From Escherichia phage UE-S5b: 64,000 nucleotides of DNA. Position numbers and translations under genes: made by a program. This document shows, one piece after another, positions 5,905 through 62,963 of the stretch. The stretch is from sequence record PP301341.1; one strand, given 5' to 3'. The notes beneath the pieces are model-generated. The model was not told the DNA's origin. It did no database searches and worked only from the letters and a program-made list of their open reading frames with translations. The stretch's first letter is position 1. Each line of letters starts with the position of its first letter.

Positions 5905-8900
5905 ACGCACATACCCCCTTTGATGCAAATCAGGATTGGACCAATCCATATTGTCATAACAGTTCCAATGACCAAATGGTGGATGCACTGCTTGGTAATG
6001 CTTACCATGTGGTTCGTACTGTGTACTGCAACCTGGGTAATCTTAAACTCCTGTATGATTTCCTGAACCAGTATGGGATGGTCATCGGTGTAAACTCTGA
6101 AGAGGAATTGAAGGCATTATCCACGCAGGTTAAATATTCCCGTATCTACGGTTTCTCCCGTGCAGGTGACCGGCAGGTAACTGATTACTTGTACGTAGAA
6201 GGTGATCGTACTGGCATCATCCCAGATGACTCAGAAGCAACTGGTTCGTGGATTACTGTTGCTACTTCTGGTTCCAATGGTGGTGGTACTTCTTCCAGTG
6301 AAGGTGCTTATATTCCTTGGGTATACAGCAATGGTTCTGCTACTGGTGGGGAAACCACAATCAACGTACCAGATGGTACGGTGGGTGTACCTTTCATTAT
6401 TGTTAATGGCGACATGCAGTATGTAGGTCGTGGATTTGAGTTCAACGTAGACAGCCTGTCCGTAACTCTGGCNCAACCTTTAGAGGAAGGNGATGAAGTA
6501 GTATTCCTTCTGACTGGTGTTCCTGCTGTACCGGATAATCCTAACATTAATGACTGGATTCAGATCAATTGGTTGTACAACAATGGTGCTGCTGTAGGGG
6601 GTGAGCAGGTTATTGCTATTCCGTATACCTTCCAGTCTATTCCGGCTGTGTATAAGAATGGTCTTCGTTTGTATAAAGGATTAACTACTGAGTCTTATAC
6701 TGCTGACCCAGATAACCAACGTATTTTTCTTACCGAACCACTGACAACCAATGATCGTTTGATAGTACAGATTGGTGGTGAAGCACGAGTATTGGAAGCA
6801 ACAGATCGTACTCTACAGGAAGTGGCTCGTGCGGCTAATGTAAAAGATTCTGAGGTTATTCTCAGTACTAATACAGTACAATCCTTAAATAACAAAAAAG
6901 TTATTTATAATCCCGATAATCAGCAGATTTACGTTATTCCAGAATTACCAACTAATGTGTATATATCCAGCGTAGTTGGTAATATCCTTACATATACTCC
7001 AGGTAACATTCAGGTTGAGTTACTAACCAAAAAAGAAACTGACCAAAATACCCTATGGCGTAATCAGGGAGATGTCCGTGGTTGGGGTGTTAAAGGGGAC
7101 GCTGTGCATGATGATACAGTAGCATTAACGAACGTATTAAACGACACACCAGTTGGACAAAAGATTAATGGCAATGGGAAGACATATAAGGTCACATCCT
7201 TGCCTGATATTAGTCGATTCGTCAACACTCGTTTTGTTTATGAGCGTATTCCTGGTCAGCCGCTTTATTATGCCTCTGAAGAATTTGTTCAGGGCGAGCT
7301 TTTCAAAATAACGGACACCCCTTATTACAATGCGTGGCCACAGGATAAAGCGTTCGTTTACGATGATGTTATTTACTGCCCGTTCATGGCTAGTGATAGA
7401 CATGGGGTCAGCAGGCTGCATGTATCCTGGGTTCGTTCAGGGGATGACGGACAGACCTGGACAACGCCGGAATGGTTAACCGACCTACATCCTGATTACC
7501 CGACAGTTAACTACCACTGTATGAGTATGGGGGTGATGCGTAATCGTCTCTTTGCGATGATTGAGACACGTACTTTAGCATCTAACGCACTGGTGACCTG
7601 TGAGATATGGGACCGTCCTATGTCCCGTAATTACCATCCGACAGGTGGTATCACAAAAGCCGCTAATCAGCCTGTGGCTGTAATTACTATTCCTGACCAT
7701 GGATTGTTTGCCGGAGATTTTGTTAACTTCTCGAACTCTGGGGTGACTGGTGTTTCGGGGAATATGACTGTAACTTCAGTTATTGACCGCAACACATTTA
7801 CTGTCACCACGCCAAATCAACAGGAATCTGACCAAAATAACTCTACCAAAGTCTGGCATATGGGGACATCGTTCCACCAGTCACCTTGGCGTAAAACCAA
7901 CCTTGGACTGATTCCCATGGTTACCGAGGTTCACAGTTTTACCGCCATCAATAATGATTCATTTATGATGGGATATCACCAGGGTGATGCTGCTCCACGT
8001 GAAGTTGGTATGCTGTATTTCCCGGATGCATTTAACAATCCTGGGCATTATATAAAACGACGTATCCCTGCTGAATATGAGCCAGATGCGGCAGAACCCT
8101 GTGTTAAATATTTTGACGGTGTTCTTTATGTTGTAACCCGTGGAACTCGGTCGGATCGTCTGGGTAGTTCACTACATCGTAGTAACGATTTGGGTATATC
8201 CTGGCAATCATTGAGGTTCCCGAATAATGTCCACCACTCCACCCTGCCATTCGCTAAGGTAGGAAACGAACTCATTCTTTTTGGAACAGAACGTGCGGAC
8301 AACGAGTGGGAAGCAAACGCACCCGACCAGCGATATTTCAGTTCTTACCCGCGAACGTTTTACACACGAGTGAACTTAGACACCTGGAATCTGGATAATA
8401 CTCAGTGGGTGAATATCACTGACCAGATATATCAGGGTGGCATTGTCAACTCTGGCGTTGGTGTTGGCTCAGTGGTTGTTAAGGATAGTTATATCTATTA
8501 CATGTTCGGTGGGGAAGACCATCTGAACCCCTGGACATATGGAGATAACTCATCGAAAGACCCATTCAAATCAGATGGTCATCCATCAGATTTGTATTGC
8601 TACAAAATGAAGATTGGTTCAGACAATCGTGTTTCCAGGGATTTCAGATATGGTGCTGTACCTGACAGAGCTGTCCCCGTGTTTTTTGATACAAATGGGA
8701 TTCGCACTGTTCCTGCTCCAATGGAATTTACAGGAGATTTGGGTTTAGGTCATGTGACCCTTAGAGCCAGCACCAGTAGTAACATTCGCTCTGAAGTTTT
8801 AATGGAAGGTGAGTATGGGTTTATCGGGAAATCTGTACCGACTAATAACCCAGCAGGGCAGCGCATCATATTTTGCGGGGGAGACGGAACCAGTTCTTCT

Positions 8901-13293: not shown

Positions 13294-13538
13294 AAAGAAA
13301 AGTAGAGTTAGTACCTAACTGGAAAAGNTGNTGGAANTGGGCATCCATTCANATTAGTACNNTTGGTTTANTTCTATTNTCNGCTNTAGATATNATCCAA
13401 CCAATGGTGACAGGATTACCTCGTCACATCTTGGAAGATATTCCCCATGGTTCCAATATTGCAATCGCACTGTTTGCCTTAAACATCATAGGCAGATTAA
13501 TACGATTCCGACCAAAGGAAGATTCACATGAAAGCTAA
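13278..13538 (+). CDS. putative holin (small membrane protein; sequence heavily N-masked)
   Basis: About 86 aa from ATG 13278 (MVRRLKRK...); hydrophobic segments; directly upstream of and overlapping the endolysin start; many N bases at 13328-13394. Confidence 0.4.
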   Translation: MVRRLKRKVELVPNWKXXWXWASIXISXXGLXLXXAXDXIQPMVTGLPRHILEDIPHGSNIAIALFALNIIGRLIRFRPKEDSHES

Positions 13539-16936: not shown

Positions 16937-17281
16937 ATGAGTAAAGAATCAACAATCGCAGGACTGGAACATCGACTGGAAGCTGCTAAAGGTGCAGTTG
17001 CACACGCAGAAGATGTACGTAAACTTTTGGAGTATCCACTGTTCCGTAAAGTAATTCTTCGTCAGTTCTGTGTGGAAGATTGTGCACGTTACGTGCAGGA
17101 GTCTGGTGACCCACTGCTTGAACCTAATAACCGTGCAGATGCATTGAACATGGCTCAAGCTGCTGGTCACTTACGTCGTTGGCTCGACCTCGCCATTCGT
17201 ATGGGNGAAAANGAAGCTGACGTTATTCTNCAGGTAGAAGAAGAACTCGANGCAGTTCGTGCTGAACCTGAAGANGAATAA
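16937..17281 (+). CDS. hypothetical protein (head-assembly region)
   Basis: 114-aa ORF between portal and scaffold; N bases in the 3' end. Confidence 0.45.
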   Translation: MSKESTIAGLEHRLEAAKGAVAHAEDVRKLLEYPLFRKVILRQFCVEDCARYVQESGDPLLEPNNRADALNMAQAAGHLRRWLDLAIRMXEXEADVIXQVEEELXAVRAEPEXE

Positions 17282-24018: not shown

Positions 24019-24475
24019 CAGGAGAATCCCCATGGATTTGTCATTCTTAACAGGCAACCCAACTCCACAGCCAGCTGCTATGTCTTGGATGTCTAATAAC
24101 AATCAGAACTTTAATACCCCGGCTATGAACTATAACCCAGGTGCAACTATTGGTATGGGGGCAAATACAGGAGTAGCCTCCCCTACTTCTTTCCTGTCTG
24201 GTTCAGCTGATCAGTTGGGATTGAATGTACCTACCTTCCAATTAGGACTGGGTGCACTTGGTTCATTAGCTAATATCTACAGTGGTTTCCAGGCTAATAA
24301 GTTAGCCAAAGACCAGTTGAACTTTACTAAGAGTGTTACTAACACTAACCTGAATAACCAGATTAAGTCTTATAACACTGCACTGGAAGATCGTGCTCGT
24401 AGCCGTGCTACAGCAGAGAACCGTGACCAGTCTACTGCTGATGCTTATATTGCAGCTAATAAATTAACCCGTTAA
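24011..24475 (+). CDS. virion protein (unknown function)
   Basis: 154-aa ORF overlapping the upstream stop. Confidence 0.45.
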   Translation: MFNRRIPMDLSFLTGNPTPQPAAMSWMSNNNQNFNTPAMNYNPGATIGMGANTGVASPTSFLSGSADQLGLNVPTFQLGLGALGSLANIYSGFQANKLAKDQLNFTKSVTNTNLNNQIKSYNTALEDRARSRATAENRDQSTADAYIAANKLTR

Positions 24476-24487
24476 TAGGAAACCATC

Positions 24488-26452
24488 ATGGCTCAAATTA
24501 CATGGCGTAATGTTGATGCACCTAACTTCTCTGGAGTAGGTGACAGCATTCGCACATTTGGTAGCATGATAGGTAACGCCACCTCCGGCTTAAGTGATGC
24601 ACTGGGTAATTTCCAGAACGCTGCCAAGCAGGAGGCTGGCAATGCCGTCATGATGAATGCTATGCAGTATCAAGATCCTACTGAGTACCGTAATGCTTTG
24701 GCATCAGGTGCACTGTTTCAGGGGGTTGACCCTTCATTGGTAAACCAGCGTACTCTCCAGAATCTGGATGAGCGAGCAGGTACACTGCTGACTCAACAAG
24801 GACAGCAGGGAACCAATGACTACATTGCATATCGCTTTGGTCGCTTAAAGGATATTAACTCAGCACTAGATAATGCTTCTCCGGCTATTCGTTTATTGTC
24901 TGAGGCTTATCAGTCTGGTGACCAGAATCGTATTAATACTGCATTGGGTCAGACTCGTGAGGCATTATCTACGCTCCCAGCTGACCAACAGTTAGAATTG
25001 TTAGGTAGTTTACAAGGACAGGGTAGTGCTGCTATTAATCAGGCGAGCAATCGTTTTGATTTGGGTGTTGCTCAACGTAATGATGCCGATAGTCAGGCAG
25101 CTATGGGTGTAATGGCACAGATTACCCGTGGTGCTGAGAACCCTAATGATGCCCGTCTGTTGGCAGAAGCATACAGTAAGAACCTGTCTCCAGTTGCACA
25201 GGCACGCTTGCAGGGATTACTGGCTAATGCTTACCCGGGTGTTTACGGTAATGGTGTAGGTGCTACGTCTGCTCCTGGTACTGCTGGTACTCGTCAGGGT
25301 TCACCTTACGATGTTACTTATCAGTTTGCTGGTACATCTACTCCTATTACTCAAATGAGTATTGGTGATGTAATTAAACACCAGGATGGTATGAAATCGA
25401 ACCAGGGTGCTTCCCCTGTTGGTGCATTCCAGATTAACCAAGCTACCTTGAAAGACTTTGCCCCCAAAGTTCTTGGTTCAGATTGGCAGAACCAACCTCT
25501 TTCCCCTGAGAACCAGGAGAAGATTGGTAAGGCTATTTTTGAGGCTCGTAAGAATGGTAACCTTAAAGATACCTGGGCTGCTCTTCCTAACTCTACCCCA
25601 GGTGCTTATAAGGATATGACTTGGGAACAGATTAAACCTGTTATTGCCCAAGCTGAAGTAGGGGCTGACCCATTCGCTCTGATTCAGAATAATCAAGGAA
25701 ATCAGGCAGTATCCACTCTGGCTCAGGGTATGATTGGTACTCGTTCTATGCAGGATAATACCGGTAGTCTTAATACTGACTTCCTTGGTACTGTCACTGA
25801 TAATACTCCAGTAGGTGAAATTGCTAACCGTCTATTAGATGGTGACTTTAAAGGTGCTGACCGTAACTGGGTACTGAACCGACTAACTGATATTTCTCAA
25901 CGTGGAAATATGTCACCAGCTATGGCTGCTGCTGTTATGCAGCGTGCACAGACTGGTGTACCGGAAGGTTACATTAGCCGTGCTATTGATGCAGTTAACC
26001 CATTCATTACCAACGAAGCCGGTAATGGTATGCGTCTTAATGACCGTTTGGTAGATCAGTTAATTGAGGGTGTACAACGTGGTGAACCACTGGAAGGCAG
26101 TGTGCGTAATCTTGGACGTGCTCAAGCTATGCAGAACATTCAGGCAGCACAGACTGCTTATGATGCTGCTGTAGCTGCACTGACAAATACTCAGAACAAG
26201 ATTAACACCGGACAAACAGGACTTACTGCATTGTTACCTGCACGTCAGGAAGCTGTTACTAAAGCTGCTGCAATGCTTCAAGCTGCACAAGCCCAAGTGC
26301 AAGCAGACCCAGCTAACCTGGCTCCAAGAGGTTTTCGGTCACAGGNTAGTGTGGACAGAGCACGAGCCAAGGAAGATGAAGAACGTGCTGCACGTTANCT
26401 ACGTCAGGCACANGGTTTGCCTGAGTATATGCAACCNAGACAAAATCGGTAA
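24488..26452 (+). CDS. internal virion protein, possibly with a muralytic-like domain
   Basis: 654 aa; low-complexity Q/A/N-rich N-terminal half; central segment ...GASPVGAFQINQATL... loosely resembles GxxQ motifs of transglycosylase-like folds (weak). Confidence 0.5.
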   Translation: MAQITWRNVDAPNFSGVGDSIRTFGSMIGNATSGLSDALGNFQNAAKQEAGNAVMMNAMQYQDPTEYRNALASGALFQGVDPSLVNQRTLQNLDERAGTLLTQQGQQGTNDYIAYRFGRLKDINSALDNASPAIRLLSEAYQSGDQNRINTALGQTREALSTLPADQQLELLGSLQGQGSAAINQASNRFDLGVAQRNDADSQAAMGVMAQITRGAENPNDARLLAEAYSKNLSPVAQARLQGLLANAYPGVYGNGVGATSAPGTAGTRQGSPYDVTYQFAGTSTPITQMSIGDVIKHQDGMKSNQGASPVGAFQINQATLKDFAPKVLGSDWQNQPLSPENQEKIGKAIFEARKNGNLKDTWAALPNSTPGAYKDMTWEQIKPVIAQAEVGADPFALIQNNQGNQAVSTLAQGMIGTRSMQDNTGSLNTDFLGTVTDNTPVGEIANRLLDGDFKGADRNWVLNRLTDISQRGNMSPAMAAAVMQRAQTGVPEGYISRAIDAVNPFITNEAGNGMRLNDRLVDQLIEGVQRGEPLEGSVRNLGRAQAMQNIQAAQTAYDAAVAALTNTQNKINTGQTGLTALLPARQEAVTKAAAMLQAAQAQVQADPANLAPRGFRSQXSVDRARAKEDEERAARXLRQAXGLPEYMQXRQNR

Positions 26453-26457
26453 TACTA

Positions 26458-26482
26458 ANAAAAGCCCTTCGGGGCTTTTTTC
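26458..26482 (+). terminator. rho-independent terminator
   Basis: AAAAGCCC-ttcg-GGGCTTTTTTC immediately after the stop of 24488..26452. Confidence 0.6.
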
Positions 26483-52732: not shown

Positions 52733-54793
52733 TTACTTAACTGCTTTAACCAGCTTGGTAGCTAATTTAGCTTCTTCTTCAGTCAGACCCATTGCAGTGA
52801 ATGACTTCTTAGCATGACGTTTATAGTCTTGCAGAGCATGGCCTTTCTGATAGTCAGAATATGACGTATCGTTCAGGATGCTACGCAGATTATCAACGTG
52901 TTTACCAGAAGGAGCTACTTTAGAAGCAGCAGCAGAACGTGTAGGTTTAACTGTCTTATCCTGCTTAACAGCTTTAGGTTTACCAATAGGCTTAATTGTA
53001 TAGGTAGCACGTACATCAGCAATCTTAGCTACCACGTCACTACCTACATCAAATGCAGCCCAAGGCTTACGAGCTTTGGAACGCAGTTCTACCAGAAGGT
53101 CAGCAGCAGCTAACTTATCTTCTGGTGTTGTTGCATTAAGGAACTCTTTAACCAGTTCCTGGATTTGTTCTTTCACAGTAGGAGCCTTCTTAATAACGGG
53201 TTTAAGGTCAGTAGCCTTCACTGGTTCAGCAGCTACAGCTTCATTCAGTGACTCTTCCATGTCCAGTGCTTCTTTGCTAGCAACTGTACGGAATTGTTCT
53301 ACAGAACCAGATGTGAGATTGGTGTATTTGAGGTTAGTACCACGATGTCCACCAACCATAATAAGTGTGGTAGGTGAACTATGGTTCCCAACGATGGCAT
53401 CATTAAGTAGTTTCTTACCTACTTCAGTTTTAGACAAATAGATACCACTGTTAACGTTATTACGTTCCTCTTCCGGCAGTTCAGCAATAATGTGATACGC
53501 AGATACACGCATCTTATTAGTGCTGTACTGAGGAACAGCAAATACATCTTCTGGTGCTACTTTACCAAGGATAGTTACGTTACCACCGAAGCTACGAATA
53601 TAGCTCATGGATGCTACATGCAGACCGTTAGAACAGTCCTGACGACGGTCAGGATCTACCAGGTCTTCCCGTACCTGCACTTTACAGCCTACCCACTGTT
53701 TGATGTTACCTGAGTGACAGTCAACGAATACACGTTTACCATCTTCTTTCCCTTTATACTGAAGGCGTTTAAGGAACAGGATTGAACCATCATCAGCGAT
53801 AGGCAATTCAGCAGTTTCCATGAACTTCATCAGGTCTTCTACTGAGTGCAGACGGTCTTTAATAACCGGAGCCAGACGCTCAAGGAACTTAGTGAAGCCC
53901 TTGTAGTCTTTCAACTTGGCAGACTGACGTAAGTGACGTTGCAGGTTCTCAACTCCAGGGATAACCCCATCGTTGGTAACAGCAACAACCACTTCATCTT
54001 CCTTCACATCAGTGTGAAAGTTAGCGTTATCAGTACTAATAGCACCTAATGCAGCTAATTTCTCGGATGCAGCAGCCAGCTTATCCTGGTTCGTAGTTTT
54101 AGCTACTTCAATGTAAGGTGGTGGGGTATGTTTACGGCTGGTAAATACAATATGTACACCTTTGATATGCTTGGCTTGTTTAGCAAACTCACCCATTTCA
54201 TCATCGGATACTGCACGAACTGCAACAGGCCATTCCTGTCTGAGCATGGTGTTGGTTTGTTCATACCCCCAACCCATTACGTCGTTAATAAAACGAACCA
54301 GTGCAGGATAGTTATGGTCCTTATCCCAGCCAGTAATCCACATCAGATTGTCACGTCTGTCGTAGCAACCATCTGATACTGTTACTTCTGGTTCATTAGC
54401 TTGTACAGCCAGGAATGTATCCATAGCTTTAGATACTAATGTCTTGGTGGGATTGCCTAGCTTAATATCAGAAACGGCTTGGGTAGGTTGAACATCTGTA
54501 CCATCCTGGAAGAACTCTTTGAGTTTAGCTTTAGCTACCTTGAAGAAACGGACGAATCCATTAGTGTTCTTCTCTGCTTCCAGATACTCATTACGCAGTG
54601 ATACTTCTGGTGCAATGTTTACTTCTATCAGGTCTTTGGTAATTCCCAAGCCTTTGGTTTGTGCTTCAGATACGATACGAGCAACCCGTGGGTCGCTCTG
54701 TGGATATACAATTGTGGAGCCATCAGGCTTCCACAATGTTAAGTTTCGACTGTCAACTGCCAGTGCGATGATAGAAATCAGTTCGATTTTCAT
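52733..54793 (-). CDS. rIIB-like protein (by position next to the rIIA-like gene)
   Basis: 686-aa ORF immediately downstream of the GHKL-ATPase rIIA-like gene. No motif evidence. Confidence 0.4.
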   Translation of the reverse strand: MKIELISIIALAVDSRNLTLWKPDGSTIVYPQSDPRVARIVSEAQTKGLGITKDLIEVNIAPEVSLRNEYLEAEKNTNGFVRFFKVAKAKLKEFFQDGTDVQPTQAVSDIKLGNPTKTLVSKAMDTFLAVQANEPEVTVSDGCYDRRDNLMWITGWDKDHNYPALVRFINDVMGWGYEQTNTMLRQEWPVAVRAVSDDEMGEFAKQAKHIKGVHIVFTSRKHTPPPYIEVAKTTNQDKLAAASEKLAALGAISTDNANFHTDVKEDEVVVAVTNDGVIPGVENLQRHLRQSAKLKDYKGFTKFLERLAPVIKDRLHSVEDLMKFMETAELPIADDGSILFLKRLQYKGKEDGKRVFVDCHSGNIKQWVGCKVQVREDLVDPDRRQDCSNGLHVASMSYIRSFGGNVTILGKVAPEDVFAVPQYSTNKMRVSAYHIIAELPEEERNNVNSGIYLSKTEVGKKLLNDAIVGNHSSPTTLIMVGGHRGTNLKYTNLTSGSVEQFRTVASKEALDMEESLNEAVAAEPVKATDLKPVIKKAPTVKEQIQELVKEFLNATTPEDKLAAADLLVELRSKARKPWAAFDVGSDVVAKIADVRATYTIKPIGKPKAVKQDKTVKPTRSAAASKVAPSGKHVDNLRSILNDTSYSDYQKGHALQDYKRHAKKSFTAMGLTEEEAKLATKLVKAVK

Positions 54794-58174: not shown

Positions 58175-58414
58175 TTACTTACGACTTCCTTCTACGAAAA
58201 GTCGTATTTGTTTTTTCACTTCTTCTTTCTCACGTATTGCTTCGTAGTCACGAGCAAAGTAGTAAACACACCATAATCCAATTTCACTTACAAAGAACAG
58301 AATACTAGCTCGAATGAACTGCATATCTGTTTCTACTACAAAGGCAACTTTGTATGCGTAGGTAAGTGTTAATAGGGTACTAATTAGCATTGCGTACAGA
58401 GCTAGTTTTTTCAT
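58175..58414 (-). CDS. small membrane protein
   Basis: 79 aa with two hydrophobic segments (LALYAMLISTLLTLTYAY; ILFFVSEIGLWCVYYF); ATGA overlap with the ThyX-like gene. Confidence 0.4.
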   Translation of the reverse strand: MKKLALYAMLISTLLTLTYAYKVAFVVETDMQFIRASILFFVSEIGLWCVYYFARDYEAIREKEEVKKQIRLFVEGSRK

Positions 58415-59355
58415 TCAGTAATAGTCTCACCAGGAATTAACTTACGGAATTGGATAAAGTGAAGCAGGTTACCTGAGTACAGATTCCCTTCTTTATCCAT
58501 GGATGTAACACCTTGTTCCCATGTAACTGGGTTCATGTTATTTACATACTTCTCACCAAGGTTCATAGGTGTAGCCTGATGTTCCGTTGGGGAAGCATGA
58601 ATAGGTTGGTTTTCCACTAACTTAGCGAATAAGCCAAGGTCTTCCTCGATAGTAGATGGTCGTCCTTCGAAGTTGTTATAGGAAGCACGAGCACAGCGTG
58701 CAGCACTTACTTTGAGAAGTAGTCCATGCACTTCTGCATCACTTGGTTCATCGCGTGTAACTCGATTGCGTTTGCAGAAATTGTAAGCCCCAACACGGTC
58801 AATATGAGCAATNTANGGCANATGCCATTGCCCATATGGTAATGCTCTNGGTGTNCTTTCTTCCTGTGCCTTACGCATTGCTTGAGCCAGTTCACGAATC
58901 TCTGGTTGTGCATCTTTGTGGTCACGCAGTCCATAGAAATTAGCCCAGCTGGTTGAAGTTACCACTACACGAATATGCGTGAATGGTTCCAGAATACGGT
59001 TAACAATCTGCTTATGTACTTGCCCACGTCGTAGCTGTTCTGCATACACAGCAGCAGCAGATGCAGCGTTATCCCAGATAAACTTAGCATCCTCAATCTC
59101 CATAGGAGTGAGTTCTTCTTCTGCTTGCATACCTTTCTGGTTCTTGCCCCAGTGACTAGGCATCACTGGTTCATTACGAACTTGTTCGATGAACTTAGCC
59201 GTGGGAATAGCACGACTGCTTGANGCATTACGGTTGAATACACGGTGNGTCATAAACTCACTGTGAATGAATCGGGGATAAACCAATTCAAAGGTAGTAA
59301 TACGAGTTCCTGTTTCTGGGTGAACGGAATCTGCAATGACAGTTGCCTTAATCAT
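58411..59355 (-). CDS. flavin-dependent thymidylate synthase (ThyX-like)
   Basis: 314 aa; xHRVFNRNxSSSRAIP fits the ThyX RHR-x7-S signature if the ambiguous residue is R (N-masked codons). Confidence 0.45.
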   Translation of the reverse strand: MIKATVIADSVHPETGTRITTFELVYPRFIHSEFMXHRVFNRNXSSSRAIPTAKFIEQVRNEPVMPSHWGKNQKGMQAEEELTPMEIEDAKFIWDNAASAAAVYAEQLRRGQVHKQIVNRILEPFTHIRVVVTSTSWANFYGLRDHKDAQPEIRELAQAMRKAQEEXTXRALPYGQWHXXXIAHIDRVGAYNFCKRNRVTRDEPSDAEVHGLLLKVSAARCARASYNNFEGRPSTIEEDLGLFAKLVENQPIHASPTEHQATPMNLGEKYVNNMNPVTWEQGVTSMDKEGNLYSGNLLHFIQFRKLIPGETITE

Positions 59356-59687
59356 TAGAATGACCTTAGATAGTTGGTGATACCACTACGGTTTTCTGTA
59401 ATTTTCTTAACCTGAACATATACCAGCTTAAACTCACTACGGGGTAGTTCTTGTAATACTGCTACACCTTCAGTAAGGGCCACAGAACACGCTACAGCGG
59501 TTTCTTTTTTAAAGGAGTATAAGTCTTCATACATGAGGGCTTCATACTCCCTGCGGAGCATACAGAGAGCATCTCTTGCCTTATCACTTACTTCTTGTGA
59601 ACCAGCAGACATAGCTAAGCTGTATATGATAAAGATTTGTTCAAAAACAAAGTCCAGTAATCGCTTTACGGTTGAGTTCATACTCAT
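59355..59687 (-). CDS. hypothetical protein
   Basis: 110-aa ORF, stop/start abutting the ThyX-like gene. Confidence 0.4.
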   Translation of the reverse strand: MSMNSTVKRLLDFVFEQIFIIYSLAMSAGSQEVSDKARDALCMLRREYEALMYEDLYSFKKETAVACSVALTEGVAVLQELPRSEFKLVYVQVKKITENRSGITNYLRSF

Positions 59688-59750
59688 CCTCTATGCCTTT
59701 ATTATAAAGAACAGGATTTCGCTCCCTTTTCCGTAGGAATGGGATACGCA

Positions 59751-60131
59751 TTAGTATTTACTACCTCTTCTATACCAAGGGTAATGATGGGTAGTGCTCT
59801 TGCCTTTGAATACATCCTTAGTACGAGGATTCTTTTGTATTTGAGCCAGGTAAAGATACGTATCATCCCTACATGGGCTAAGCCAGAACTTATCTATGAT
59901 TCGGTCTACCTTAGATTTCAGATGAGGTTCCGGAGGAATGTATGAAGGAAAAGGTCTGCTAATAGTCCATCCTTTTTGAACAAGAGCCTGCATTGTCGTG
60001 TAAAGATCTAACTCAATTTCATTCTCTACTTGATCATGGATAGTTTTACCTAGAGTAAGCATTGCAGTTTGTTCTAGCTTACTTAAGTCCAGCCCTTGCA
60101 GGATAGACTTACCATTTTGTCTGCTTGACAT
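59751..60131 (-). CDS. hypothetical protein
   Basis: 126-aa ORF. Confidence 0.4.
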   Translation of the reverse strand: MSSRQNGKSILQGLDLSKLEQTAMLTLGKTIHDQVENEIELDLYTTMQALVQKGWTISRPFPSYIPPEPHLKSKVDRIIDKFWLSPCRDDTYLYLAQIQKNPRTKDVFKGKSTTHHYPWYRRGSKY

Positions 60132-60225
60132 AAGAGTACCTGTAAATAAAAAAGCCCACGGGTTAGGTGGGCTTGGGTTAGGAGATGGATAAGCAATGAG
60201 CTGGAAGTAACTTCCACAAGCATCA

Positions 60226-60492
60226 CTATGTAATGATGCTTAGGTTAGTTACTCTGANTTTACTGCCACCATTGGTTTGAACAACAGTTACGTTTGTAAC
60301 TTGGTTCTGACCTTTGTTGGACAGTGACCAAATCAGTGCTACTACCCAGAAGACTAAAGACCAGCCTAATACAATATTAAGCACACCAATGCCCCACTTG
60401 GAGGCATGGCCTCGTGCAAAAGCAATGATAGTAGGGATGAGGTATACAGCTAATACAAACAACATAACAAGGATTGCTGCTAAAGATTCCAT
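60226..60492 (-). CDS. Imm-like superinfection-immunity family membrane protein (candidate)
   Basis: About 88 aa from MESLAAIL (AGGAA RBS); two TM segments and a C-terminal NIVLGWSLVFWVVALIWSL motif resembling the conserved LGW...GW..AL.W signature recalled for this family. Confidence 0.45.
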   Translation of the reverse strand: MESLAAILVMLFVLAVYLIPTIIAFARGHASKWGIGVLNIVLGWSLVFWVVALIWSLSNKGQNQVTNVTVVQTNGGSKXRVTNLSIIT

Positions 60493-60565
60493 GATGGTTC
60501 CTATGTGAGGTTGAGTTAGTTTCTTCACAAATAGCCCAACTATGCTGGGCTATTTAGGCAGCTAC

Positions 60566-60775
60566 TTACTCAGCATCTTTGCTTGCAGGAGCAAGAGCTT
60601 TCTTCAGGTAATTGCGTACTGAACGATAGGTTTCTTTAGTATCCATAGCACTATCATTTACGAAAGTGATACGTGCACAATCAGACAGCGGAATCTGCTC
60701 CACTGCAATTACATTTGCAGCATTAATGGTTACACGTACATCTGAGGTTGCATGAGTTACTTGAAATACTGACAT
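60566..60775 (-). CDS. hypothetical small protein
   Basis: 69-aa ORF; hairpin TAGCCCA-N7-TGGGCTA lies just downstream. Confidence 0.35.
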   Translation of the reverse strand: MSVFQVTHATSDVRVTINAANVIAVEQIPLSDCARITFVNDSAMDTKETYRSVRNYLKKALAPASKDAE

Positions 60776-60805
60776 GTTGTTTCCTTAATTAAGCCGGATA
60801 GCCTT

Positions 60806-61312
60806 TTATTTTGAAGGTCTAGCAGCTACTGGTTTGTTTTCCTGATTCTGATACTTACCATTGTAATTAGCAGGTTCTTGAACCAGATGAAATAATACTT
60901 GAGCTATCCCAGCACCAGCCGGGATATGCAATTTCTTACGACCGTGATAGACCAGTTCGAGGGTAAGATACCCTTTCCATCCTGGTTCTATTACGGTATT
61001 GAACACTGATAATGCACGTCTTGCCCATGTAGACTTATCGTGAACGATTGCTACACAGGACGGGGACATGTTGAACTTCTCAATTGCTGAGGCCAAGGCG
61101 AACTTACCGAGATGGCGTGATACTTGATTTCCATCAACGACTTTCACCATTGGAATCAGCCCAAATAAGCGATAGAAGGTAATATCTTGTTTGATACGAA
61201 TATCATAACCAGCTTCACCTAATCCATAGCTTACACCATGCTCTGATACCTTATGGTCTGGGACATCCAGCAACTGAGATGAACGGTATAGAGAATTACC
61301 ATTAACAACCAT
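60806..61312 (-). CDS. dCTP deaminase / dUTPase-superfamily protein
   Basis: 168 aa; GLGEAGYDIRI and VFNTVIEPGWKGYLTLEL resemble the beta-barrel nucleotide-binding motifs of this superfamily. Confidence 0.55.
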   Translation of the reverse strand: MVVNGNSLYRSSQLLDVPDHKVSEHGVSYGLGEAGYDIRIKQDITFYRLFGLIPMVKVVDGNQVSRHLGKFALASAIEKFNMSPSCVAIVHDKSTWARRALSVFNTVIEPGWKGYLTLELVYHGRKKLHIPAGAGIAQVLFHLVQEPANYNGKYQNQENKPVAARPSK

Positions 61313-62487
61313 TATTTCATTCCTTTAGGGATATGAACTACCTCCCCAAAAGGTACGGTAGCATTGGGATTATTCAGAACACACCAGATGATAGGAATAT
61401 CAAATGGTAATTCTTCCATTGGACGAACATACATATCGGAGAATATGATTGCAGCGGTTGGTTTATTCTTAATAATCCACTCGCGTACTGGTTCCAGGTT
61501 TGTACCACCACGACCGGTAATCTTAATCTCTTCAAAAGTATCTTCTTCAGTGATGTCTATCTCTTCTTGGATAATATCGTCGAAGGTAATTAAGGACATC
61601 TTCTTAGGATTGAACTGGCTCTTAACGTAGGCAACCTCTGAGTTAAAACGCAGAGAGTCAGCACTACTAATAGAACCAGATACATCCTCAAAGTAGGCTA
61701 AGTGTCGTAAGCGTCCTTCATCATCTTCCATGGAAGGTAGATAGATGTCAGTAAAACGACGGTTAGGTCTGGCCCACGTATAATGAGTATCGTCAATGTC
61801 GGTAAAGAAGTTCATGAGGACTTCCTGCCATGGAACCACTGGTTTAAGGAATTGGGTAATAACCTCTTCCATACGACCAGCACCCTTACCGGGCATCTGT
61901 CCACCAGCCATTTTCTGGCTCTGCATTGCTCGTACTACGTTGTTGACGACAGCACCCTGGGACTGCCCCGAAGTGGGGGATTTCATGTCGCCAGCAAGAC
62001 CTGCTCCAGCACCCCCTGACGGCTTCTGCCTTTTCTGAGGGTTCTTCATCAGGTCATCGTAGATGTCTTCTTCGACCCATCCTTTATATTGAGGGTCTTT
62101 GCAAATACCTTTATCAATGCCAGTGAACTTATAACCATCTTCTTCTAACTGAAGGTTAATGAAGTGGTCACACGCCTGGTTCCAGATTTCTGGGTCACGG
62201 CTTCCACGACGGATGCCATGCAGATATGCCACATGCCAAAGTTCATGCATTAACACTGTTTCTCTGGCATCTGGACACATCCAGATAAAGAAATCTGGAT
62301 TGAAGTGAAGTTCTATCCCATCAGTACATGCAGTGGGACAATTCTCACGTTTCCATGAGAACTTAAGACTACATAGTAATGAACCAAAGAACGCAGCACT
62401 GCGTCCGAGAAATGCGTTGGCCTGTATTCTATCGTATTCCCTCATTAACTGTTCATCAGTGAGGTTATGTGGTGGTATGTTATTCAT
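61312..62487 (-). CDS. VWA-domain protein with N-terminal HExxH metallopeptidase-like domain (partner of the MoxR-type ATPase)
   Basis: 391 aa; MHELWHVAYLH (HExxH) in the N-terminal half; MIDAS motif DVSGSIS (DxSxS) in the C-terminal half. Confidence 0.6.
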   Translation of the reverse strand: MNNIPPHNLTDEQLMREYDRIQANAFLGRSAAFFGSLLCSLKFSWKRENCPTACTDGIELHFNPDFFIWMCPDARETVLMHELWHVAYLHGIRRGSRDPEIWNQACDHFINLQLEEDGYKFTGIDKGICKDPQYKGWVEEDIYDDLMKNPQKRQKPSGGAGAGLAGDMKSPTSGQSQGAVVNNVVRAMQSQKMAGGQMPGKGAGRMEEVITQFLKPVVPWQEVLMNFFTDIDDTHYTWARPNRRFTDIYLPSMEDDEGRLRHLAYFEDVSGSISSADSLRFNSEVAYVKSQFNPKKMSLITFDDIIQEEIDITEEDTFEEIKITGRGGTNLEPVREWIIKNKPTAAIIFSDMYVRPMEELPFDIPIIWCVLNNPNATVPFGEVVHIPKGMK

Positions 62488-62963
62488 TAAGATGCTCCAT
62501 GATTTATATGGTAACCCAATAATTTTTCTGCTTCCTTTCTGGCTGTAATGGCCTCTTGTTTACTGTTAAACTTTCCTAAGTAAATTTGTTTACCATTATC
62601 ATTTATATGGGCAGCCCAGATTTTATCTCGGGTGTGCCAGTAAACTCCTGTCACACCTGATGTATTTGTAATTCTCTTGGTTTGATTTTTGCAATTAATC
62701 GAGTTTGTTACTAAACGGAAATTGCTTGGGTAATTATTTAATCTATTATGGTCAATATGGTCTACCTGCATACCGTCAGGAATTGGTCCAATCTCCATTT
62801 CATAAATTATGCGGTGAACTAAATGCATTTTCTTGTTACATTTAACACGCAAATACCCACTGTTATCCAAACAACCGGCAATGGCACCTGCTTTTACGCA
62901 GCCCCTGCTTACTTTCCAGTAGAGGGAACCATTGCTATAAACAAATAGTTCATGCCAATTCAT
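62487..62963 (-). mobile_element. HNH-AP2 homing endonuclease gene inserted between the VWA and ATPase genes
   Basis: 158 aa; HNH core LVHRIIYEMEIGPIPDGMQVDHIDHNRLNN; C-terminal AP2-like GVYWHTRDKIWAAHINDNGKQIYLGKFNSKQEAITARKEA; start and stop abut both neighbours. Confidence 0.7.

Follow-up and report, generated by a model that had tools for sequence, protein, structure and literature searches.

An Imm-Family Gene in an N4-Like Escherichia Phage and Its Possible Role in Superinfection Exclusion

Gene Neighborhood and RNA Elements of the imm Locus

The DNA analyzed here is a stretch of 64,000 nucleotides from Escherichia phage UE-S5b (PP301341.1), referred to below as the window, which belongs to the genus Gamaleyavirus (Schitoviridae, Enquatrovirinae). 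The 5 kb surrounding the small gene under study, hereafter imm, are 99.7% identical to Escherichia phage UE-M6 and 85–95% identical to dozens of G7C-like phages. The whole block is encoded on the minus strand, in the order ATPase (N4 gp24-like), HNH endonuclease, vWA protein (gp25-like), dCTP deaminase (gp26), a gp27-like gene, and imm, followed by gp28-like and gp29-like genes, ThyX (gp30), and rIIA/rIIB. This arrangement corresponds to the N4 middle-region block gp24–gp34, with imm inserted between the homologs of gp27 and gp28, and the placement of the gene in the middle-gene region, put forward in the original prediction, therefore holds by synteny. The HNH homing-endonuclease ORF (62487–62963, minus strand) lies between the vWA and ATPase genes; many relatives align over 88–91% of the 5-kb query in two or three pieces, Bp4 carries different HNH insertions, and this stretch may be a variable homing-endonuclease site. 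In the N4 gp29-like gene on the minus strand, 47 bp of UE-M6 are missing at 59662/59663, which shifts the frame (the UE-M6 coding sequence has 444 nt, whereas the window ORF runs from 59355 to 59687 from its first ATG); the absence may be either a true deletion or an assembly error.

The imm gene is bracketed by two stem-loops and followed by a terminator-like hairpin, all on the minus strand. A long imperfect stem-loop (60507–60577; -28.8 kcal/mol, z = -4.2), designated inverted repeat I1, forms the upstream boundary of the cassette directly after the stop codon of the gp27-like gene and is annotated as "stem_loop" in G7C. A second stem-loop of similar architecture (60206–60253; -22.8 kcal/mol, z = -5.5), designated I2, starts at the imm stop codon and forms the downstream boundary. 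In both, the start coincides with the stop codon of the gene before, and the two share the layout GAGTAA...CCTAA...hairpin...TTGTG(G)AAG, and they may represent RNA processing or termination sites. Further downstream, a hairpin at 60142–60174 (stem 60174–60152, 8 pairs; z = -4.4) is followed by the T-run TTTTATTT; it is annotated as "terminator" in PhAPEC5 and PhAPEC7 and has been conserved in N4, KP8, and phi G17, located there downstream of gp27. A scan for sigma-70-like promoters detected none on the minus strand 5′ of imm. The stem-loop was also sought as a dispersed repeat across the window and does not recur elsewhere in it, as one pattern gave 0 matches and a second matched the known site only; the first pattern was probably too strict, as both known copies were missed.

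Reading Frame and Corrected 3′ End of imm

The ORF list and its translation contain a minus-strand ORF with an ATG at 60492 and a stop codon at 60226–60228, encoding 88 amino acids as the window reads. The small ORF described in the original prediction at 60226–60492 exists, far beyond chance expectation, and its start stands, but its 3′ end does not. An ambiguous base (N) at position 60258 coincides with a gap in both UE-M6 and Bp4 and is, in alignment with these two relatives, an inserted base rather than a substitution. The extra base shifts the imm frame, adding eight codons and altering the last residues, and the ten residues with which the translated window ORF ends (XRVTNLSIIT) are accordingly artefactual. 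Upon removal of the N, the frame reads ...GGSKSE* with the true stop codon at 60249–60251, so that the corrected coding sequence spans 60249–60492 (minus strand) and encodes a protein of 80 amino acids that is 100% identical to UE-M6 WWE95628.1. Eighty residues is also the commonest length among close homologs: nearly all of the 83 homologous protein clusters found have 80 or 86 residues, and a single 80-residue cluster contains 295 member sequences. The start is accompanied by a Shine-Dalgarno-like AGGAA at 60498–60502 (minus strand), 5 nt 5′ of the ATG, which is invariant in the alignment of UE-M6, Bp4, and G7C. An alternative GTG start at 60528, which would give an ORF of 100 amino acids, was rejected; it lies within the upstream stem-loop and lacks a ribosome-binding site, and the homologs all start with ME at the ATG. 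An antisense ORF of 64 amino acids (60314–60508, plus strand) was taken as spurious.

Ambiguous bases occur elsewhere in the window, which contains 65 N in clusters (e.g., 13328–13394, 17206–17275, 26346–26459, 58813–58855, and 60258); seven of them fall within the ThyX gene, whose translation shows X at these sites. Overall, the window has the appearance of a UE-M6-like genome whose consensus is of lower quality. A separate irregularity is present in Bp4 (NC_024142, 5334–5537), in which the RefSeq imm is annotated as 67 amino acids owing to a 1-nt deletion past the Pfam domain; the normal tail persists there in another frame with 94.7% identity to residues 62–80, and the deletion probably reflects either an error in sequencing or a frameshift of very recent origin.

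Protein Architecture and Membership in the Imm Family

Hydropathy analysis indicates two hydrophobic segments at approximately residues 2–26 and 34–58, and an AlphaFold2 model built with 39 homologs (mean pLDDT 71.8) places helices at residues 2–26 and 30–62, followed by a disordered tail. Both analyses agree with the earlier proposal of two transmembrane segments, and the protein is predicted to fold into a hydrophobic hairpin of two helices, with a polar tail that is disordered. The motif NIVLGWSLVFWVVALIWSL, on which the family assignment had originally been based, is indeed present (residues 39–57); both the Pfam domain and helix 2 end with it, but it is not the C-terminus of the protein, as had been assumed, since a polar N/Q/T/V-rich tail of approximately 23 residues lies beyond it. 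The size (80 residues) and the hydrophobic helical core fit the PF14373 type of about 70–90 residues, with embedding in the membrane as the predicted state.

The resemblance to the Imm family, originally suggested on the basis of its C-terminal signature, was borne out by profile searches. The window protein matches PF14373 (Imm_superinfect) with 61.6 bits (E=6.5e-17) at residues 16–57, compared with a gathering cut-off of 27.9 bits, and the match spans positions 1–42 of the 42 in the profile; the corrected 80-residue form, which equals the UE-M6 protein, scores 61.9 bits, and the same profile gives 58.2 bits for T4 Imm itself. The domain occupies 60322–60447 (minus strand) and includes the codons of R27 (60412–60414) and W44 (60361–60363). 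PHROG 1039, "immunity to superinfection," is matched at 8e-30, and matches to sizeable families are all to Imm, save three PHROG families of unknown function. When the window was scanned in six frames with an Imm profile, the imm ORF was the sole match (E=2.4e-42; next best 0.25). An NCBIfam scan of the window protein gave no match, and neither did a PDB sequence search at E up to 10. Judged by these profile and pairwise similarities, the window ORF encodes a member of the T4 Imm (PF14373) family.

T4 Imm (UniProt P08986; NC_000866, 26373–26624) is the founding member of the family, and the likeness extends over several features: the two proteins have a similar length (83 residues in T4 and 80 here), a hydrophobic helical core is followed by a short polar tail in both, and both genes lie in the pre-late region of a virulent coliphage next to nucleotide-metabolism genes. 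In T4 (locus L004, 5480–6625), imm lies by gene 42 (dCMP hydroxymethylase), and here it lies between the dCTP deaminase and ThyX genes (58411–61312); this shared neighborhood is probably a coincidence. By contrast, pairwise identity in BLASTP is only 30% over 61 residues (E=3e-10). The alignment nevertheless places R27 and W44 opposite R33 and W50 of T4 Imm, and in alignments of 24 and 39 sequences R27 never varies and conservation of W44 reaches at least 90%. In T4, the substitutions R33A and W50A lower exclusion, and W50 has been assigned to the loop that joins helices 2 and 3 (bioRxiv 10.64898/2026.03.06.709160), whereas the second helix is continuous in our model, which is of moderate confidence.

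Distribution and Evolution of imm in N4-Like Phages

The gene is already known as an annotation. In G7C, Bp4, EC1-UPM, PhAPEC5/7, IME11, and others, the ortholog is labeled "immunity to superinfection" or "putative membrane immunity protein," whereas the UE-M6 copy is labeled "hypothetical protein"; the annotators' name for the gene is gp27.1, for which similarity to JS98 Imm was cited (PMC3853248). The label in G7C-like genomes dates from about 2012, both Pfam and PHROGs include the family as a curated entry, and all of these labels are based on homology. The gp27.1 proteins of G7C, Bp4, EC1-UPM, PhAPEC5/7, Moo19, and other Enquatrovirinae are 63–100% identical orthologs that occupy the same slot, with homologs of gp27 and of gp28/gp29 on either side, in the same context of stem-loops and terminator, and they differ in the tail, which occurs in variants giving 80 and 86 residues.

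Of 62 related phage records, 54 contain imm DNA. Moo19, which belongs to a different genus, carries the gene in the same slot, as do two metagenomic N4-like contigs whose homologs are only 53–60% identical, and this divergence within one slot indicates that imm has long been retained in the N4-like lineage. N4, KP8, and phi G17 (Gamaleyavirus) lack the gene and have one stem-loop in its place: searches with the Imm profile of six-frame translations of the phi G17 and KP8 loci and of the complete N4 genome yielded no homolog (best E 0.05–0.17, the value for N4 being 0.17). The single stem-loop of phi G17 (locus L005, 1500–1600) looks like a hybrid of the two that flank imm and is followed by the same terminator. 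As these relatives keep one hybrid-like stem-loop, the unit of presence and absence would span approximately 60215–60525, which is consistent with gain or loss through recombination between stem-loop copies.

Such gaps in distribution raise the question of whether imm is a dispensable gene in decay, of which the window holds a non-functional remnant. The shifted frame at 60258, the 67-residue product in Bp4, and the records of phi G17, Moonfish, and Jgk1, which match the imm flanks only with the gene itself unmatched, would fit such a remnant. However, the shift in the window is due to one N of 65 within flanks identical to UE-M6, and the frameshifts of the window and Bp4 both lie beyond the Pfam domain in the disordered tail. 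Moreover, dN/dS over codons 1–61 is 0.03–0.19 in comparisons with Bp4, G7C, and Moo19; imm is under purifying selection, and the dominance of the 80- and 86-residue forms among the clusters also speaks against decay, which we regard as very improbable. Rather, imm is a long-standing, selected, and dispensable resident of part of the Enquatrovirinae, dispensable because N4, KP8, and phi G17 do without it.

Possible Function and Target of the Imm-Like Protein

N4-type phages use an ejectosome composed of gp52, gp51, and the virion RNA polymerase (vRNAP) for DNA delivery, and the commonest superinfecting phages of an infected cell are normally the kin of the resident phage. Similarity searches locate homologs of gp52 and gp51 in the window at 24032–24472 and 24488–26257, respectively. 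[quoted passage not shown] The mechanistic data available are for T4: its Imm resides in the inner membrane and halts genome translocation. A 2026 preprint reports that a gp29 fragment, from the tape measure protein, was purified together with Imm (bioRxiv 10.64898/2026.03.06.709160). No homolog of T4 gp29 was detected in the window (tblastn E>1, best E=1.9), and this difference from T4 means that the T4 mechanism is not directly transferable; a kin-directed interaction of Imm with a tape measure protein of exactly the T4 type is unlikely on this sequence comparison, and kin-directed exclusion would require a different target.

By analogy with T4, we consider it most probable (roughly 0.6) that this Imm-family protein blocks the entry of superinfecting DNA at the inner membrane and that it is most likely directed against kin. 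The protein would be made in the pre-late phase, as the synteny of its gene suggests, would insert into the inner membrane, and would there stop later-arriving phages from moving their DNA across it. Blocking might be achieved by binding a membrane-inserting, channel-forming protein ejected by the incoming virion, as T4 Imm binds gp29. The inner-membrane part of the ejectosome is favored as the target because no gp29 homolog is detectable in this podovirus and its kin are the phages that superinfect most often; the likeliest points of contact, named here speculatively, would be the C-terminal hydrophobic end of the gp51 homolog, the vRNAP N-terminal domain, or both. The more specific proposal that the Imm fold is not tape-measure-specific and, in N4-like podoviruses, blocks the gp52/gp51/vRNAP ejectosome via the gp51 C-terminus or the vRNAP NTD is tentative, and we would place it somewhat short of even odds. 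HK97 gp15 and the immunity proteins against pore-forming colicins, small inner-membrane proteins that the T4 preprint cites and that are proposed to block an externally delivered pore or channel, would resemble the window protein in mechanism only.

A different target is conceivable if the protein acts on competitors rather than kin, in which case it would bind, as in T4, the tape measure protein of T-even-like myoviruses or siphoviruses that share the host. All sampled homologs outside the N4-like phages occur in apparent myoviruses and siphoviruses, as judged by names or genome sizes, including T4-like Klebsiella and Citrobacter phages (42–50% identity), Acinetobacter phages of the AP22 type (52–54%), and Salmonella and E. 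coli phages of about 47–52 kb; conservation of the residues corresponding to R33 and W50 and the lack of a gp29 homolog in the window itself would also suit this mode of action. Nevertheless, identity as low as approximately 53% within the same N4-like slot suggests long co-evolution with the lineage, identity to T4 Imm is low at 30%, and kin remain the usual superinfecting phages. Exclusion directed at unrelated phages is, on balance, unlikely.

The protein may instead have another role at the membrane, such as signaling in the timing or inhibition of lysis or perturbation of the membrane during host takeover, and be related to Imm by descent alone. In N4-type phages, lysis inhibition is linked to superinfection (PMC12642591), homologs of rIIA and rIIB lie a few genes from imm, and T4 Imm is toxic when over-expressed (bioRxiv 10.64898/2026.03.06.709160). 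N4, however, in which lysis inhibition was described, lacks an Imm homolog genome-wide, imm is distant from the lysis cassette (N4 gp60–63), the sizeable families matched are all Imm apart from the three PHROGs of unknown function, and the residues important for T4 Imm function are retained. We therefore consider such a role improbable, more so than exclusion of competitors, and retain kin-directed blocking of DNA entry as the preferred reading.

Two labels in the N4 RefSeq record (NC_008720) touch on this subject. gp18 (7668–7982) is labeled "superinfection exclusion, similar to P22 gp17," and its homolog would fall past the end of the window. gp57 (53083–54300), flanked by the genes for the major head and portal proteins, is labeled "tail length tape measure protein," a doubtful label for a podovirus.

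Perspective

The annotation itself adds little to what the labels of related genomes already state. Its value is that of a test case, as an Imm homolog is maintained by selection in a podovirus in which no tape measure homolog is detectable, and it raises the question of whether Imm proteins act against podovirus ejectosomes or against unrelated competitors. In the literature, we found homology-based annotation but no experimental exclusion test of a Gamaleyavirus or N4-like Imm homolog, and no superinfection-exclusion system has been characterized for N4 (PMC12642591). The gene could also bear on how superinfection is sensed for lysis inhibition in N4-like phages. If the ejectosome proposal is true, the missing superinfection-exclusion system would be identified for part of the Schitoviridae, and PF14373 proteins would be general inhibitors of the membrane channels that phages deliver.
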